Source: a virus
Length of the DNA stretch: 38,411 nucleotides
Reading direction: 5' to 3' (one strand)
IMG/VR virus record: IMGVR_UViG_3300045988_111237
Span: 1-38,411 of that record
How positions within the stretch are numbered: the stretch's first letter is position 1; every line of letters starts with the position of its first letter. Positions 465 to 15,145 of this stretch are shown one piece after another. Made by a program: the position numbers and the translations under genes. A model generated the notes under the pieces. The model ran no database searches. It worked only from the letters and a program-made list of their open reading frames with translations, and was not told the origin of the DNA.

Positions 465-1592
465 TCATGAAAAAAGTTTTATTTGATCAATCTTTCGGTT
501 ATCATTTTCGATAACCTTCTGGGTGACATGGATGTAGATTTTGCTTGTGATCTCACTTTTGCTGTGTCCGAGCCTTCGTGCGATTTCCTCCGGTGTCATG
601 CCGTTTGCTGCCAAGAGGGAAGCATGTGTGTGTCGGAGCATATGAGGAGTGACACGTCTGCCGAGAAGCTTTTCAGATAAATCTCCAAGGTATTTTTCAT
701 AGCTTCGGTGTAATATATGATCTCCTGTCTTTGTATTCGGAATCAACAGCTTTGTTCGGATATTTCTTTCAATCATCATTTCATTTCGCCACAGCATACA
801 TTTTTTCAGTTCTGTGAGAAGATCCGGCTGGATGTGGATTGTACGCTTGGAGTGGTCTGTTTTTGGAGTTGTTACTATGTCATTGATGGAATCGTATGTT
901 TTGGATATGCGTATAGTAAGGTTGCTCATGTCTATGTCAGACACTTCCAGCGCAGATATTTCTCCGAAGCGAAGACCAGTGAGTAAAAGTATAGATGTGA
1001 TATAGTACCAGTTCCAACGATTATCTTCTTTGATTGCAGCGAGTAGGTCCTTTGCTTCGGTTGGTTCCAGATACTTTAATGTGATCTCTTGTTCTTCACA
1101 CGAATCAACAAATGGCTTGAGCTTACTGATCAGCGCCAAGTTGTTGTGATAATCATTTGCATATCCCCAGTTCAGCATGGCTTTGAATCTTGTAATATAA
1201 TTATTTACTGTACTGACCGGTTTCCCGGAATCAAGCAGTCTTGAGTTGACATACTGCGCTGTAAGGTTATTCACGATGGCATCTGGATTAAGCAGATCGA
1301 GAACCGAGGATGTAATGATCTTGTTCCTTCTTACGGTTGACTGCTTGAATGTGAGTGCCTGTGTTTTCAGGTACTCTTTTTGCAGTTGTGAAAGTGTTGT
1401 AGAGCAGTCAACACATTGAAGCTCTGCAATAGCTGCTTCAATCTTTGCAGTCAATTCTCTTTGTGCTTTGTTTCTGTTCTGCACCGAGTCTTTTGGCATT
1501 GAGACGGATGCTATTTCCAGCTTTCCGGTTAATGGGTTTTTGTACCGTGCCCGGTAAACGGCCGTACCATTTTTTTGAATATTACACCACAT
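465..1592 (-). CDS. int: Tyrosine recombinase / phage integrase
   Basis: 375 aa. SAM-like N-terminal domain. Catalytic signature LTGLRFGE (R), HMLRHTHAS (HxxR), GHSKSEITSKIYIHV (H..Y). AAGGAGG RBS at 1598-1606 on the minus strand. Confidence 0.95.
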   Translation of the reverse strand: MWCNIQKNGTAVYRARYKNPLTGKLEIASVSMPKDSVQNRNKAQRELTAKIEAAIAELQCVDCSTTLSQLQKEYLKTQALTFKQSTVRRNKIITSSVLDLLNPDAIVNNLTAQYVNSRLLDSGKPVSTVNNYITRFKAMLNWGYANDYHNNLALISKLKPFVDSCEEQEITLKYLEPTEAKDLLAAIKEDNRWNWYYITSILLLTGLRFGEISALEVSDIDMSNLTIRISKTYDSINDIVTTPKTDHSKRTIHIQPDLLTELKKCMLWRNEMMIERNIRTKLLIPNTKTGDHILHRSYEKYLGDLSEKLLGRRVTPHMLRHTHASLLAANGMTPEEIARRLGHSKSEITSKIYIHVTQKVIENDNRKIDQIKLFS

Positions 1593-2323: not shown

Positions 2324-2710
2324 TTATTCGCCTTTTTCTTTCTTTTTTAATGCAAGTAGCATAGTATGTACTGTTTGGATGTCTTCCGGAGAAGCATCAC
2401 GTGCAGCATCGAAGAGAAGTGAGAGCTCTTTGTTCTCGAAGATCTCCTGTGCCTTCTTTGCTGTTTCAGGGTCCAAATAGTATGAAGCTTCTCTTTTATC
2501 TTCAATTAAATCGGATTTGTTGATTCCGAAATAATCAGATAATAATTGAACCTTACCCATTCTTGGTATTGCGATGCCTTGACACCATGTATTAAATGTT
2601 TGTGGAGATACCCCAATGGCATCGGCAATTTCTTTTTGTGATTTTCCACATGAATATATATATTTATTCAAATTTCTAGAAAATACACTTTTTTGTTCTT
2701 CATCCGACAT
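2324..2710 (-). CDS. XRE-family HTH repressor (CI-like)
   Basis: 128 aa from the ATG at 2710, preceded by AGGAGG. HTH SQKEIADAIGVSPQTFNTWCQG. The ORF-track N-terminal extension to 2773 has no RBS. Confidence 0.9.
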   Translation of the reverse strand: MSDEEQKSVFSRNLNKYIYSCGKSQKEIADAIGVSPQTFNTWCQGIAIPRMGKVQLLSDYFGINKSDLIEDKREASYYLDPETAKKAQEIFENKELSLLFDAARDASPEDIQTVHTMLLALKKKEKGE

Positions 2711-2740
2711 ATGTAAATACCTCCTGTATTTAATAACTAC

Positions 2741-2769
2741 ATAATACAATACAATTTGATAAATAGCAA
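2741..2769 (-). promoter_or_regulatory. Leftward repressor promoter (TTGCTA-17-TATTAT)
   Basis: Minus-strand -35 at 2764-2769, -10 at 2741-2746, 17-nt spacer. The spacer contains a degenerate operator (2744-2760) whose right half AATTTGAT is exact. Confidence 0.65.
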
Positions 2770-2799
2770 CCAAAAATCAAAAAAAATTTTATTTTAGTA

Positions 2800-10537: not shown

Positions 10538-11072
10538 ACTGCGAAATCAGAAGATCATGGAGAATATCAAACTCGTGTATTTTCATTTGAATAAATATCA
10601 TGGATTCCCAAATTACGATGACATCATACAGGAAGGTGTACTTGCACTGGTGGAAGCCATTGACAGAAGCAAGGATCTGGAACATCTGAATCGAAATTAT
10701 ATTGGAATATATATCAACAGATATGTGGAAAGATACATTCAATTTGGAGATGTGACAGTACGTACACCATTTCACTGGAAAGATGTCGAGAAACCACAGT
10801 ATGTATCACTCGACAAGATTGTAAATGATGATGGTGACAGTTATGGGGATTCGTTTCTGGAAGACAGACACGATTGTATCGGAGAACTTATTACGATGAT
10901 GGATTTTGAACATATGGTAGATCAGTTGTCTCCGAGAACACAGAAGCCGATGCGGTGCATGCTGCAAGGATATGGCATGACCGATACAGCGAAAATGTGC
11001 GGTATATCGTTTGAACGAGTGAGACAGATCAAGAAGCTGTGCAATAGAGAACTGGTTGCAAGTGAGGTGTGA
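10509..11072 (+). CDS. Phage-encoded sigma-70-family factor (regions 2 and 4)
   Basis: 187 aa. DDIIQEGVLALVEAIDR (region 2-like) and MTDTAKMCGISFERVRQIKK (region 4.2-like HTH). Overlaps the upstream gene by 29 nt. Confidence 0.7.
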   Translation: MDLTKAERIELRNQKIMENIKLVYFHLNKYHGFPNYDDIIQEGVLALVEAIDRSKDLEHLNRNYIGIYINRYVERYIQFGDVTVRTPFHWKDVEKPQYVSLDKIVNDDGDSYGDSFLEDRHDCIGELITMMDFEHMVDQLSPRTQKPMRCMLQGYGMTDTAKMCGISFERVRQIKKLCNRELVASEV

Positions 11073-11073
11073 C

Positions 11074-13581
11074 ATGACATACAGAGAATTTTTAGAAAGC
11101 AAAATTGACCTTGCAACAGACAGCGGATTTGTGGTTGATCGTTCGAAAATCAATCCGGCGTTGAAACCGCACCAGGCAGATGCTGTTGCATGGGCACTTA
11201 AGGGCGGACGCCGGGCATTGTTTGAAGCGTTCGGACTTGGAAAAACGATACAGGAGATAGAGTTTTGCTATCTGGCAGCAGAACATACCGGCGGCAGAGC
11301 TTTGATTGTATTGCCGCTTGGAGTGAAGCAGGAGTTTACCAGAGATGCGGTGGAACTGCTCGGATATGAGAAGCCGGAGTATTGCCGGACGATGGATGAG
11401 GTCAAGGCGTGCGACAGTCAGATTGTACTGACGAACTATGAGCGAGTGAGAGATGGTGATGTAGATCCAGCGTACTTTGCTGCAACATCACTGGATGAAG
11501 CAAGCGTTCTCCGCTCATTTGGAAGTAAGACTTATCAGACATTTTTGGATAAATTCAAGAACGTTCCGTATAAGCTTGTAGCCACGGCTACACCATCGCC
11601 GAATAAGTACAAGGAGCTTATACACTATGCCGGATATCTTGAAGTCATGGACACAGGACAGGCGCTGACAAGATTTTTCCAGCGTGATAGTACAAAGGCA
11701 AACAACCTGACGCTGTATCCGAACATGGAAGATGAGTTTTGGTTGTGGGTGTCAAGCTGGGCGCTGTTCGTTACAAAGCCGTCAGATCTCAATCCGGAAT
11801 ATTCAGATGCAGGCTATGATCTGCCGCCGTTGGATGTGAGATGGCATGAGATACCGATTCACTACGGAGATACGGCGGATAAGGATGGACAGATGCAGTT
11901 ATTCCAAGAAGCAGCGGAAGGTTTGAAGGAAGCGGCAGCAGTCAAGCGTGATAGCATAGATATACGAGTACAGAAGATGAAAGAGATTGTAGATGCTTCG
12001 CCGGATGATCATTTCCTGCTGTGGCATGATTTGGAGAGCGAACGGCATGCAATCAAAAAAGCGTTGCCAGAGACAGTTGATATCTATGGAGCTATGGACT
12101 ATGAGACGAGAGAACAGCGTGTAATTGATTTCTCAAACGGAAAGACACGGCTGTTTGCAACAAAGAAATCGCTGTCCGGCTCCGGGTGTAATTTCCAGCG
12201 GTATTGCCACCGTGAGATATTCCTTGGCATAGATTATGAGTTCAATGATTTCATTCAGGCAATACATCGGTGCTACAGATTCCTGCAGAGTAAGCCGGTA
12301 GTAATCGACATCATCTACATGGAGAACGAGCGGCAGATAAAGGAAGCGTTGATTGAAAAGTGGAAGAATCACAATTACATGGTCAAGCGGATGGTTGAGA
12401 TCGTGAAGAAATATGGACTGAATTCAGCGAATAAAGCTGAACGATTAGAAAGGAAGATGGGAGTGGAAGGAACAAGAGAAGAACGAACCGTGCGAGGAAA
12501 TCACTATGAAGCGGTATACGGCGATTGTGTGGAAGAAACACGTGTCATGGCAAGTAACAGCGTTGATCTGATACATACGTCGATACCATTCGGCAATCAC
12601 TACGAGTACAGCGCAAATTATAACGACTTTGGACACAACCAGGATACAGAGCGGTTCTTTGTACAGATGGACTACTTGACGCCGGAGCTTCTGCGAGTGT
12701 TAAAGCCGGGTAGAGTGGCAGCAGTGCATGTTAAAGACAGAGTGCTTTTTGGAAATGCGACTGGTACCGGGATGCCGACGATCGAGCCGTTTCATGCGGA
12801 TTGTATCGAACATTACATGAAGCATGGTTTTATGTATTTCGGCATGATCACCGTTGTGACGGATGTTGTGCGGGAGAACAACCAGACATACCGACTTGGT
12901 TGGTCTGAGCAGTGCAAGGACGGCACCAAGATGGGTGTAGGATGCCCGGAATATATCCTATTGTTCCGAAAGCTCCCAACGGATCATAGCAAAGCATATG
13001 CAGATGATCCAGTATCAAAGAGCAAGGAAGAGTACACAAGAGCACAATGGCAGATAGACGCACATGGATATTGGAGATCATCTGGTGATCGTCTGATCAG
13101 TAAGGATGAGTTGAAAGAGATATCGGTGGATAATCTGCAGAAAGCATACAGGAAATACAGCAGAGAGAGCGTGTACAACTATGAAGAGCATGTGAAGCTT
13201 GCAAAAGAGCTTGATAAGGACGGCAGACTGCCGGCCACTTTCATGGTGGTTGCTCCGGGATCATGGAACCAGATTGAGGTGTGGGATGATATCAACCGGA
13301 TGCGGACGCTTAACACGACACAGAGCCGCAGAAGAGCGCAGATGCATGTATGTCCGCTTCAACTTGATATTGTGGAGCGGATCATCAACAGATACAGCAA
13401 TCCGGGAGATGTCGTATATGATCCGTTCGGCGGACTTATGACGGTACCAATGACGGCGGTTAAGATGGGAAGATATGGTAAAGGCTGTGAGTTGAATCCT
13501 GATTATTTCCGAGATGGAGTTGGATATCTGCAGGCAGCAGAAAACGAGATGGACGAGCTGACGCTGTTCGATTTTATGTAA
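11074..13581 (+). CDS. SNF2/DEAD-like helicase fused to a C-terminal beta-class DNA methyltransferase
   Basis: 835 aa. Helicase motifs GLGKT, LDEAS, ATATPSPN, QAIHRCYRF. MTase motif IV-like TSIPF, then motif I-like VYDPFGGLMTVPMTAVKMGR..GCELNPDYF. Confidence 0.85.
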   Translation: MTYREFLESKIDLATDSGFVVDRSKINPALKPHQADAVAWALKGGRRALFEAFGLGKTIQEIEFCYLAAEHTGGRALIVLPLGVKQEFTRDAVELLGYEKPEYCRTMDEVKACDSQIVLTNYERVRDGDVDPAYFAATSLDEASVLRSFGSKTYQTFLDKFKNVPYKLVATATPSPNKYKELIHYAGYLEVMDTGQALTRFFQRDSTKANNLTLYPNMEDEFWLWVSSWALFVTKPSDLNPEYSDAGYDLPPLDVRWHEIPIHYGDTADKDGQMQLFQEAAEGLKEAAAVKRDSIDIRVQKMKEIVDASPDDHFLLWHDLESERHAIKKALPETVDIYGAMDYETREQRVIDFSNGKTRLFATKKSLSGSGCNFQRYCHREIFLGIDYEFNDFIQAIHRCYRFLQSKPVVIDIIYMENERQIKEALIEKWKNHNYMVKRMVEIVKKYGLNSANKAERLERKMGVEGTREERTVRGNHYEAVYGDCVEETRVMASNSVDLIHTSIPFGNHYEYSANYNDFGHNQDTERFFVQMDYLTPELLRVLKPGRVAAVHVKDRVLFGNATGTGMPTIEPFHADCIEHYMKHGFMYFGMITVVTDVVRENNQTYRLGWSEQCKDGTKMGVGCPEYILLFRKLPTDHSKAYADDPVSKSKEEYTRAQWQIDAHGYWRSSGDRLISKDELKEISVDNLQKAYRKYSRESVYNYEEHVKLAKELDKDGRLPATFMVVAPGSWNQIEVWDDINRMRTLNTTQSRRRAQMHVCPLQLDIVERIINRYSNPGDVVYDPFGGLMTVPMTAVKMGRYGKGCELNPDYFRDGVGYLQAAENEMDELTLFDFM

Positions 13582-13591
13582 AAAGATTATG

Positions 13592-13678
13592 TGGCGGGTT
13601 CGAGGGGAATCGAACCCCTCGGTGTCCAAAGATTTACTTACCATCTGTTCCTGCAACATTGGATTCCAGCGCAAACCC
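13592..13678 (-). ncRNA. Non-canonical tRNA-like gene with encoded CCA
   Basis: Minus strand reads GGGTTTG...AGGGG-TTCGATT-CCCCT-CGAACCC-G-CCA. Canonical T arm and a 7-bp acceptor (one G:U). No 5-bp/7-nt anticodon arm can be drawn. Confidence 0.5.
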
Positions 13679-13900
13679 ACACACACCTGCGCCCGCCGTT
13701 AGCTTTTTAAAAAAATCATATATTGCCATAATAGTCCCTCCAGTAAGTGTAATGCTTAATTTAAGATTAGTTGTAATTGTATGTTCATATATGGCGGAAC
13801 AGCATGAGATAAATAATGTAAGTAAATATGTTATTGGCAAATTATATCAATATTATATTGCCATTAAATTAGAAAATCAAGGAAAGGAGACATAAAATAC

Positions 13901-15145
13901 ATGTTACAAGAACAATTTGACTTCTTGGAAGATATTGAGATAGACAAGCCGGATGTGGAATTCCAGAAGTGGAAAGAACAGAAACGTGAAGCAAAAAGCC
14001 GGATGATTGCCATGCAATATCAGCCATATGATGTAAAAAAGAAGAGGTCAGAACTCCGTGCAATAGAATTTCTTCAGGAGATGGATAAACGTGGAAAAAC
14101 AGCGCATGTCAGTGTCGGTGGACTTGATAGCATTACATTGCATGTGTTCTTGAAATCTATCGGAATTGATGTACCGGCAATATCAGTATCAAGTCTGGAA
14201 GATGCAAGTATTCAGAAAGTGCACAAAGCGCTTGGTGTGACAAGTCTGCATTCATATAAGACAAAGACACAGGTATTGAATGAGGTTGGATTTCCGGTAA
14301 TCAGTAAGCGTATAGCAGGTAAGATCGCATTGTTACAGAATCCGACGGAAAAGAATAAAACGGTCAGACATGCAATTATAACAGGTGAATGTGGAGAACT
14401 CGGACATTTTCAGAAGAATAGCAGGATGAAACTGCCGCAGAAGTGGTTGAAATTGTTCGGAGGGTATGAAAACGAAAATGAAGGAGTGAACTATCAGAAA
14501 CCGGATTTCAAGGTATCAAATGATTGTTGCTACTGGCTCAAAGAAAAACCATGTGACGACTGGGCGAGGGAACATCAGAGCTATCCGTATCTTGGAATGA
14601 TGGCATCGGAAGGTGGGCAGAGAGAAGAAGCGCTTACCGATCACGGATGCAACTACTATGGAAAAACTACAATGCGATCGGCTCCGTTTGCTCCGTATAT
14701 GCGAAATGACATATTAAAGCTGGCGTTGGAAATGGATGATTGGTATCACAAAAACATGGATGTGTTTGAGAAGTTGTACTATGAACAGTCGTACAGCAGA
14801 GACAAGAATGGAAATGTAATACCATATGAACCGGTAGAGCATATCATACCAGATATTTACGGAGAGATTGTTCGGGACCCGAACGGAAACCTTCAGACTA
14901 CCGGAGCGCAGAGAACCGGATGCAGTATGTGCGGGTTTGGAATCCACATGGAGAAAAGGCCACATAGATTTGATAAATTGCGAGAACGTAACCAGAAAGA
15001 ATGGGAGTATTACATGTACCGGTGTTGTACAGATCCAGAGACTGGAGAGAAATATGGCTGGGGAAGAGTTCTCGATTACATAGGAGTTCCGTGGGAAGAT
15101 TATCCGGCAATTCAGATGGAGTTGCCATTAGATCAGATGATGTAG
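13901..15145 (+). CDS. PAPS-reductase-like PP-loop ATPase family protein
   Basis: 414 aa. PP-loop variant SVGGLDS. Cys clusters CCYWLKEKPC and CSMCGFG. AAAGGAG RBS. Confidence 0.75.
   Translation: MLQEQFDFLEDIEIDKPDVEFQKWKEQKREAKSRMIAMQYQPYDVKKKRSELRAIEFLQEMDKRGKTAHVSVGGLDSITLHVFLKSIGIDVPAISVSSLEDASIQKVHKALGVTSLHSYKTKTQVLNEVGFPVISKRIAGKIALLQNPTEKNKTVRHAIITGECGELGHFQKNSRMKLPQKWLKLFGGYENENEGVNYQKPDFKVSNDCCYWLKEKPCDDWAREHQSYPYLGMMASEGGQREEALTDHGCNYYGKTTMRSAPFAPYMRNDILKLALEMDDWYHKNMDVFEKLYYEQSYSRDKNGNVIPYEPVEHIIPDIYGEIVRDPNGNLQTTGAQRTGCSMCGFGIHMEKRPHRFDKLRERNQKEWEYYMYRCCTDPETGEKYGWGRVLDYIGVPWEDYPAIQMELPLDQMM

Follow-up and report, generated by a model that had tools for sequence, protein, structure and literature searches.

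What is a tRNA-like sequence doing, by itself, on the minus strand of a prophage? The question is raised by positions 13592-13678 of a viral DNA stretch, IMG/VR record IMGVR_UViG_3300045988_111237, which we analyzed over its whole length of 38,411 nucleotides (nt) and refer to as the window. An initial annotation had read these 87 nt as a tRNA-like gene with an acceptor stem, a T arm and a CCA but no canonical anticodon arm. The minus strand of 13592-13678 has exactly the sequence quoted there, and its parts are genuine: the acceptor-like helix GGGTTTG/CGAACCC forms seven pairs, one of them U.G; the T arm AGGGG-TTCGATT-CCCCT corresponds to the consensus T arm; and G73 is followed in the window by an encoded CCA, which none of the four tRNAs at 4-371 encodes. 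The stretch is also the sole convincing minus-strand feature within a block of plus-strand early and late genes. However, while a conserved minus-strand mimic of the acceptor and T arms is indeed present, it is not a stand-alone gene but the 3' third of a unit of about 250 nt that contains a small open reading frame (ORF). The reading that we favor, with a confidence a little better than even, is that of a self-contained, moron-type mobile-element cassette, which encodes a small-ORF mRNA gated by folding back on itself and bearing a tRNA-minihelix-like 3' cap.

A conserved RNA unit in clostridial mobile elements

Homologs were sought in GenBank phages, by pattern scans of IMG/VR, by scans of species genomes and of metagenomes, and by a peptide-profile search. 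Those found comprise about 80 loci with 38 distinct full-length sequences, which fall into eight subtypes, A-H. Most derive from human-gut phage contigs, with further copies in a Sedimentibacter metagenome-assembled genome (MAG) and two NCBI genome assemblies. In one of these assemblies the cassette lies in a region resembling an integrative and conjugative element (ICE), with TraG, topoisomerase and integrase genes, and the source labels the peptide a Clostridium hypothetical protein; in the other it lies in an island rich in recombinases and IS66. The carriers of the cassette are temperate phages and other mobile elements of Clostridia. A blastn search against 50,697 GenBank phage records gave no match.

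Alignment A5, made of 23 distinct sequences, is the basis of the helix pair counts given below. An nhmmer profile built from it matched about 80 loci end to end, over model positions 2-250; therefore, the conserved unit is of about 250 nt and not of 87:

13592-13845, minus strand: the whole conserved RNA unit (about 250 nt, from the nhmmer profile), of which 13592-13678 is the 3' third

There are no insertions or deletions in the first 166 columns of A5, and the promoter boxes and the entire leader are conserved. The check for covariation in relatives came out positive for the acceptor-like helix, which has compensatory changes, though what is conserved is the whole unit rather than the 87 nt alone. 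The homologs retain these changes and the promoter, without the pattern of a tRNA relic. A profile headed by a natural 48-residue read-through form of the encoded peptide matched only 23 "hypothetical" clusters. The unit has no match in Rfam 15, and our literature searches turned up no prior description of such an RNA family. It constitutes a family of structured small-ORF RNAs whose 3' end resembles a tRNA minihelix and which are carried by mobile elements of Clostridia.

The cassette is autonomous and not tied to the enzymes encoded next to it. Its convergent and divergent neighbors vary between types, and most phages closely related to this one do not carry it. A link to a neighboring PP-loop enzyme had been suggested; yet in other elements the cassette has unrelated genes as neighbors, and among phages whose PAPS-reductase-like gene is 96-98% identical, most lack it. 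Of 80 loci in phages where the identity of this gene is 76-100%, six have the cassette at this site and two have it elsewhere; a tie to that gene was accordingly rejected. A role as cofactor for the neighboring enzymes is effectively excluded.

Recombination has left other traces. Partial copies in L101 (927-969), L106, L108 and L174 retain only the last ~44 nt, running from AAAAUUUGGGCACC via the T hairpin to AAACCCG and adjoining the end of a C5-methylase gene; their breakpoint falls inside the strand termed LR1b below, and the remainder is replaced by the start of another gene. L155 and L158 are natural recombinants between subtypes. L158 has a C-type middle leader between a G-type 5' leader block and a G-type ORF and 3' domain. 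L155 combines a G-type leader with a C-type body, which creates a single C.A mismatch in helix LR1, and this mismatch shows that recombination shuffles the RNA halves.

The promoter and the small ORF

Upstream of the 87 nt, the minus strand carries the features of a small gene:

13852-13880, minus strand: sigma-70-type promoter, with -35 box TTGATT (13880-13875), 17-nt spacer and -10 box TATAAT (13857-13852); 10 of 12 matches in the promoter scan

13736-13741, minus strand: Shine-Dalgarno (SD) sequence GGAGGG, 6 nt before the AUG

13634-13729, minus strand: small ORF of 31 codons plus UAA, translated as MAIYDFFKKLTAGAGVCGFALESNVAGTDGK, with its AUG at 13729

Both promoter boxes keep their place throughout types A-H, and we infer that transcription starts near 13845. 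The promoter lies about 115 nt upstream of the AUG, giving a 115-nt leader, and 170 nt upstream of the 87-nt stretch. The last 15 codons of the ORF overlap the 5' half of that stretch, and its UAA is situated in what had been taken for an anticodon loop. The GGAGG core of the SD is invariant in A5, with weaker forms (GAAGG, GGAAG) in two variants outside it, and the AUG is invariant except for one UUG start. All types retain an ORF, of 22-31 residues with some read-through forms, the stop of which always lies 3' of the strand termed P1a below. Over the first 22 codons, stop triplets number 1 in the ORF frame as against 34 and 37 in the other two, and the single in-frame stop comes from a contig of 0.75x coverage. 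Two independent 6-nt deletions preserve the frame. A T in the second position is kept at hydrophobic codons 3, 7 and 10, and mostly at codon 4, while first and third positions vary. From these patterns we consider the ORF to be probably translated. The predicted peptide has an amphipathic N-terminus and a Gly/Ala-rich segment, and may be a toxin, an exclusion factor or the product of a mere sensor ORF.

Certain other readings of the peptide were rejected. A double-glycine leader or precursor of a ribosomally synthesized and post-translationally modified peptide has a register that is inconsistent across types, with no maturation genes nearby; a CxxC metal site is missing in types A, C and H. 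Codon-position entropy proved uninformative as a coding test, with similar periodicity arising by chance in the leader.

Long-range helices between the leader and the ORF

The central part of the 87 nt had been interpreted as the D and anticodon regions of a tRNA. It is instead the 3' strand of helices that covary with the 5' leader, made up of the following strands:

13834-13839, minus strand: 5'-terminal strand UGCCAA, pairing with UUGGACA at 13623-13629 (columns 3-8/217-223)

13818-13827, minus strand: LR1a, leader block AUUUACUUAC, partner of the "anticodon loop" (columns 15-24/202-212)

13632-13641, minus strand: LR1b, GUAAGUAAAU, the "anticodon loop" itself, containing the ORF stop codon (13634-13636) and pairing with 13818-13827

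13796-13806, minus strand: LR2a, leader block CAUGCUGUUCC, CU-rich and anti-SD-like, pairing with GGAACAGAUG at 13642-13651

13642-13651, minus strand: LR2b, GGAACAGAUG, an SD-like GGAG/GGAA block inside the ORF, pairing with 13796-13806

13790-13795, minus strand: GCCAUA of the start-codon helix, pairing with UAUGGC at 13725-13730 (columns 47-52/112-117)

LR1 has changes on both sides in 6 of its 10 pairs, with 93.4% of cells paired in A5. Each of the 16 types tested keeps the duplex, with energies of -8 to -18 kcal/mol, and it appears in the unconstrained minimum free energy (MFE) structure of all nine types folded. In types D2 and D3 (L142 and L150), a compensatory U-to-C change in LR1, from G.U to G-C, abolishes the stop codon. 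LR2 (columns 36-46/191-200) has four pairs with changes on both sides and 94.3% of cells paired. The terminal helix is mostly invariant (84.8% paired in A5) and is present in the full-length MFE structure of every type folded; the start-codon helix, with 87% of cells paired, includes a pair, 48:116, that switches between C-G, U-A and U.G. Jointly, these four helices include 12 double-change pairs with 90.8% of cells paired; when the partners were slid, pairing fell to 37-48%, and none of 500 shuffles reached the score. RNAalifold, unaided, recovers LR1, the core of LR2, the AUG helix and the T hairpin. There are many G.U pairs (46:191 in 10 sequences, 163:251 in 12), which would be A.C on the plus strand; hence, the structure is that of the minus-strand RNA. 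The AGAT/ATCT stem put forward as a possible anticodon stem is not kept in the homologs. The stated absence of an anticodon arm itself holds, as ARAGORN and Rfam find no tRNA and the central region pairs with the 5' leader.

The CU-rich block at 13796-13806 has a further potential partner: it pairs either with the real SD at 13736-13741, in one RNAalifold run, or with the GGAAC/GGAGC block in the ORF, as LR2. LR2 and the pairing with the real SD exclude each other; they are the second such pair of helices, next to P1 and P1' of the 3' domain.

The 3' domain

Downstream of the LR helices, the unit ends in a hairpin and a C-rich strand with two alternative G-rich partners inside the ORF:

13602-13620, minus strand: T-arm-like hairpin GAGGGG-UUCGAUU-CCCCUC, its stem invariant in all A5 sequences

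13673-13680, minus strand: P1a, GUGGGUUU, 5' strand of the "acceptor" helix, positions -2 to 6 (columns 162-169/245-252)

13692-13697, minus strand: P1'a, GGCGGG (codons 11-13), alternative partner of the 3' CCCGCC (columns 145-150/248-253)

13593-13601, minus strand: 3' strand GAACCCGCC, common to P1 (13594-13601) and P1' (13593-13598); the window's "CCA" is 13592-13594

P1 is paired in 99.4% of cells over the 23 A5 sequences and shows compensatory changes, with pair 1:72 going from G-C to A-U and pair 4:69 from U-A to C-G or G.U. It continues through -1:73 and -2:74, past the end of an acceptor, so that the "discriminator" is paired. The flanking GGCGGG/CCCGCC had been proposed to extend the acceptor helix; because it uses the same CCC, it competes with that helix instead. 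This competitor, P1', has changes on both sides in three of its six pairs and 94.9% of cells paired; when the 3' domain is folded by itself, P1' has the lower energy of the two in types A and C-F. In type F, a G-to-A change in both 5' strands, that of P1 and that of P1', matches a C-to-U change at position 72.

The stem of the T hairpin is unchanged in nearly every copy outside A5 as well, with one copy found through its peptide implying a single mismatch; copies found via the peptide alone mostly retain an intact hairpin. The loop fits UUCRANU and varies only at positions 57 and 59 (GAU, AAA, AAU, AAC, GAC or GAA), except for GGC in L151 and GCAAUU in L193. A scan permitting any T stem gave only unrelated matches in high-GC coding sequence and no T-stem covariation.

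L193 (6100-6135), from the Clostridium isolate genome GCA_001705235.1, is the one clear loss of the T-loop motif. The promoter, leader and ORF are intact there, and the hairpin is altered to GGGGGG-GCAAUU-CCCCUC; the copy lies in the ICE-like region, with TraG/VirD4, topoisomerase and integrase genes.

Likeness to tRNA and tmRNA

How far does the resemblance to tRNA extend? The 3' domain has the acceptor and T-arm geometry of tRNA (RF00005), with a 7-bp acceptor stacked on a 5-bp T stem and a T-loop of U54 U55 C56 R57 A58, but ARAGORN, Rfam and the comparison of homologs alike reveal no D arm and no anticodon arm. ARAGORN calls only the four tRNAs at 4-371 and makes no standard call at 13592-13678; likewise, at gathering scores Rfam reports those four and neither a tRNA nor a tmRNA at this locus. 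Candidates for a D arm, for an AAG-bearing anticodon arm and for a long variable arm, as a cloverleaf would have, all fail on comparison with homologs of types B-H, and a D-loop/T-loop contact was rejected as the GG in CUGGAAUCC is not conserved, being replaced by AGAACC or AAAAU in other types. In a permissive Rfam search the best match was tmRNA, which scored 15.5 bits where the cutoff is 47, in an alignment that covers both ends only and skips 328 model positions. With E=3.9e-4 over the 701 nt searched, this likeness exceeds chance, as does the conserved pairing of the acceptor-like helix. With E up to 10 the search found nothing besides tmRNA and permuted tmRNA, and no C4 or other small RNA (sRNA) family. 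Neither is tmRNA (RF00023) a fit, since ARAGORN makes no such call and pair 3:70 is G-C in all A5 sequences and not G3.U70. A single-stranded discriminator with a 3' CCA is lacking, as pairs -1:73 and -2:74 form in 23 of 23 sequences. The CCA is restricted to type A, the subtype of the window, and L149, a variant of type E; elsewhere, positions 74-76 read UUA, UCA, CUA, CUU or UCC, and in types B, D and E these bases (UUA, UCA, CUA) are the complement of the stop codon of the convergent gene. Thus, the element copies the acceptor/T-arm half of a tRNA only and is neither a tRNA nor a tmRNA.

A different element with the same T-arm core occurs in marine metagenome contigs (L135 7650-7760, L146 6560-6680, L165, L186 and L188). 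It has the form AGUGAGAGG, about 95 nt and then CACCGAGGGGUUCAAGUCCCCUCCUCACU, that is, an acceptor-like helix and T arm around a large insert, and receives no ARAGORN or Rfam call; L135 has a bona fide tmRNA elsewhere, at 1914-2310. Other matches to the T-arm pattern, in marine contigs, in the terminators of L104 and L136 and in L134, are unrelated to the cassette.

A proposed fold-back-gated mRNA and similar systems

We propose the following course of events for the favored reading. The finished RNA would be closed, with its 5' end zipped to the 3' region and the AUG occluded, and so would be stable and poorly translated. An entering ribosome would have to unzip P1', P1, LR2 and LR1; since the path of the ribosome and the stop codon lie in helix strands, translation and folding would be mutually exclusive. 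The T hairpin stacked on P1 would form a 12-bp tRNA-minihelix-like cap that protects or defines the 3' end.

Self-silencing by a closed fold is the logic of the type I toxin mRNAs hok, of plasmid R1, and AapA1, of Helicobacter pylori. Like the cassette, these are mRNAs of about 250 nt for a peptide of about 30 residues, borne on mobile elements with their own promoter; their 5' leader pairs with the 3' region, the start is occluded, and alternative helices suggest a refolding step. The cassette resembles type I toxin mRNAs in its ORF of 22-31 codons (under 60 residues) and in a start occluded by covarying long-range helices. It differs from hok and aapA1 in that no antisense antitoxin was found and no sequence or Rfam similarity is seen, and in having an amphipathic, Gly-rich peptide with no clear transmembrane helix. 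On these grounds, membership in the hok/AapA1 family is unsupported. To our knowledge, hok and aapA1 mRNAs have no T-loop hairpin stacked on a pseudoknot helix at the 3' end. In this part the cassette resembles a tRNA minihelix or the tRNA-like domain of tmRNA, with which it shares 12 coaxial base pairs of acceptor and T stem, the G53-C61 closing pair, the UUCRANU loop and the alignment of both ends to the tmRNA model; unlike these, it remains below every threshold and lacks D and anticodon arms, G3.U70, a tag ORF and tmRNA-type pseudoknots, its positions 73 and 74 are paired, and its CCA is not conserved. In plant mitochondrial t-elements and MALAT1 mascRNA, too, a longer transcript has an acceptor and T arm at its 3' end and no anticodon arm, but these elements are eukaryotic or organellar and are defined by RNase P and RNase Z cleavage, whereas the 5' acceptor strand of the cassette lies inside a coding region. 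The C4 antisense RNA of phages P1 and P7 and other non-tRNA substrates of RNase P (PMC11143913) offer a likeness as phage-borne small RNAs with a tRNA-like feature on which tRNA-processing enzymes might act, but the cassette has no Rfam match to C4, is found in Clostridia and contains a conserved ORF.

Several observations weigh against the fold-back reading. The 87-nt stretch alone has a folding energy no better than shuffles (z = -0.45), and the same is true of the MFE of the full-length RNA (z = -0.13); with no energetic support in any of the z-scores (-0.45, -0.13, -0.43), the structure is therefore drawn from covariation only. For P1 as for P1', the independent compensatory events number no more than one or two; both helices form pseudoknots with respect to the leader pairing, and UGG at columns 218-220 is a possible third partner of the 3' strand. 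On the side of the peptide, pN/pS is 0.90 in the ORF frame as against 1.17-1.22 in the other frames, which amounts to weak amino-acid constraint; the C-terminus and the position of the stop vary, with read-through in some types; and RNA pairing accounts for the first base of codon 2. The best 19-residue Kyte-Doolittle window scores 0.6-1.6, below the usual transmembrane value of 1.6, while TisB and Fst reach 2.2-2.5. The scan detected no antisense promoter within the cassette, none is conserved in the alignments of homologs, and no antitoxin was found, though one may be encoded in trans or arise by read-through. Neither the scan nor the 3' flanks reveal a U-tract terminator downstream. Finally, the complete invariance of the T hairpin stem exceeds what a cap needs.

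Weighing the alternatives

The main competitor is a non-coding regulatory RNA, for example an antisense or immunity RNA directed at the plus-strand early transcript or a target in trans, in which the ORF is not functionally translated and the 3' module is a handle for RNase P or stability, as in the C4 RNA of P1/P7. The near-neutral pN/pS, the variable stop and C-terminus, and "codon" changes that are accounted for by RNA pairing (48:116 and the F-type G-to-A) all favor it, as does the strong, constitutive-looking promoter that opposes the lytic operon from the integrase/repressor strand. There is also precedent in the phage C4 antisense RNA, which is processed by RNase P (PMC11143913). However, the SD and AUG are invariant and correctly spaced, the ORF frame has one stop triplet against 34 and 37, the indels of the first 20 codons are in frame and the hydrophobic codon pattern persists; moreover, neither C4 nor another sRNA family of Rfam matches the cassette, and the transcript leaves the ribosome-binding site of the divergent gene uncovered. 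We therefore regard a non-coding RNA as unlikely, though a contender of some weight. Somewhat more doubtful is an RNA of two states, alternating between the closed mRNA-like fold and an exposed acceptor/T-arm minihelix recognized by the tRNA machinery. Its readers may include RNase P or RNase Z, the CCA-adding enzyme, T-loop modifiers or tRNA-targeting defense toxins, and tRNA-processing enzymes may thereby gate translation, decay or decoy activity. Such a switch fits the unvarying sequence of the T hairpin, the fixed 12-bp geometry and the presence of two covarying helices in competition. A functional tRNA-like small RNA, whose 3' ~85 nt would be excised by RNase P and RNase Z, keep or receive CCA and engage in tRNA-type chemistry (aminoacylation, tmRNA-like rescue or service as cofactor of a neighboring enzyme), draws on the 12-bp stack with its 3' strand of constant length, the retention of U54, U55, C56, R57 and A58 in almost all variants, the two-ended tmRNA alignment, and the GCCA encoded by the window's subtype where host tRNAs have no encoded CCA. 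Against it stand the silence of ARAGORN and Rfam, the leader pairing in place of an anticodon arm, the paired positions 73 and 74 with a discriminator of G or A, the lack of CCA in most types, G3-C70 instead of G3.U70, C instead of U at position 8, the unconserved D-loop GG and the want of a constant neighboring enzyme; furthermore, if RNase P cleaved at G1, the ORF would be severed at codon 18. This makes it very unlikely.

Three explanations are left. That the hairpin is a bidirectional intrinsic terminator between convergent genes, resembling a T arm by chance, might be suspected from its GC-rich 6 bp, which in every type lie exactly between the convergent gene's end and that of the small ORF, and from the partial copies (L101, L106, L108, L174) that retain only the 3' piece beside the convergent gene. 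Yet most types have no U-tract on either strand (types B, F and G lack a U run in their 3' flanks), the terminator scan makes no call, the stem is invariant where it should covary, the flanking strand covaries with sites 80-100 nt upstream, and lytic plus-strand transcription must traverse the hairpin; we hold this explanation to be effectively excluded. Highly improbable, too, is a DNA-level site, in which ~35 bp that never vary (TTGGACACC, the T hairpin and AAACCCG) would serve as a target of recombination or as an attachment (att)-like site, explaining both T-arm likeness and mobility. The 3' halves of tRNAs are classic integrase targets, the invariance goes beyond the needs of RNA pairing, the breakpoint of the partial copies lies just 5' of these ~35 bp, and the cassette occupies different loci. 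But no recombinase travels with the cassette, the cassette boundaries resemble ordinary mosaic junctions at gene ends, and the covariation of P1b tolerates G.U in a strand-specific manner and is therefore at the level of RNA. Moreover, none of the 185,579 species genomes scanned has this T arm in a tRNA: an origin as an att site or tRNA 3' fragment was pursued with the T arm and its 5' flank, and the one match was the homologous cassette in the Sedimentibacter MAG. Most improbable of all, and in effect refuted, is that the element is what decay has left of a tRNA or tmRNA gene. A relic might well have an intact acceptor and T arm beside D and anticodon regions that are unrecognizable, as here, but about 80 copies in eight subtypes retain the whole 250-nt unit, its compensatory changes and its promoter, and the "decayed" center is a conserved, covarying helix strand.

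The prophage setting

The window is a temperate siphophage prophage adjoining a tRNA cluster. Its plus-strand block runs, in order, through RecE/RecT, replication genes, a sigma-like protein, the SNF2-methylase, the PAPS-reductase-like gene, an ArpU-like regulator, terminase, portal and major head protein. The genes to which we refer are:

465-1592, minus strand: integrase

2324-2773, minus strand: repressor

11056-13581, plus strand: fusion of an N-terminal SNF2-family helicase and a C-terminal N6_N4 DNA methylase, 841 residues, the convergent neighbor of the cassette

13901-15145, plus strand: PAPS-reductase-like protein, 414 residues, assigned through PHROG 424 only, with no Pfam match

The neighbors were thus rightly described on one side, where the enzyme is of a DNA-modification type; on the other, the PP-loop assignment comes down to the PAPS-reductase-like match to PHROG 424. 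The cassette lies on the strand of the integrase and repressor, that of lysogeny, opposite the long plus-strand block, and therefore points against lytic transcription.

In type D phages, the SNF2-helicase/methyltransferase gene family is found on the other side of the cassette, divergent instead of convergent. The integrase gene abuts tRNA-Phe (296-371), with a GC hairpin and T-run at ~381-422, and the attachment site of the prophage probably overlaps the 3' end of this tRNA gene. In addition, many plus-strand genes of unrelated function in these phages end in similar C-terminal tails (window 13560-13581 and 15120-15145; L093, L097, L100, L142, L171), namely ..LTLFDFM, ..MELPLDQMM, ..QMxLEDFM(K), ..QMQIEDVPEVMP, ..YVPLEDVLEVMP, ..GQLCFV and ..GQLRFA. 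Such tails may represent a common C-terminal signal, or else conserved junctions or linkers by which the exchange of mosaic modules is promoted.

Concluding remarks

For annotation, these findings remove a false lead: the element is neither a tRNA nor a tmRNA of the phage, nor does it serve the neighboring DNA-modification genes as a cofactor. In its place, they define a structured RNA of about 250 nt, with an embedded small ORF, a T-loop hairpin and helices well supported by covariation, in mobile elements of the human gut and of anaerobes. If the fold-back model is true, this RNA would be a clostridial counterpart of the self-silencing mRNAs of the hok/AapA1 type, with an unusual tRNA-minihelix 3' cap, and would bear on prophage maintenance, exclusion or toxin biology in gut Firmicutes. 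Moreover, if the tRNA machinery reads this cap, the control of a mobile-element mRNA would be linked to tRNA processing.

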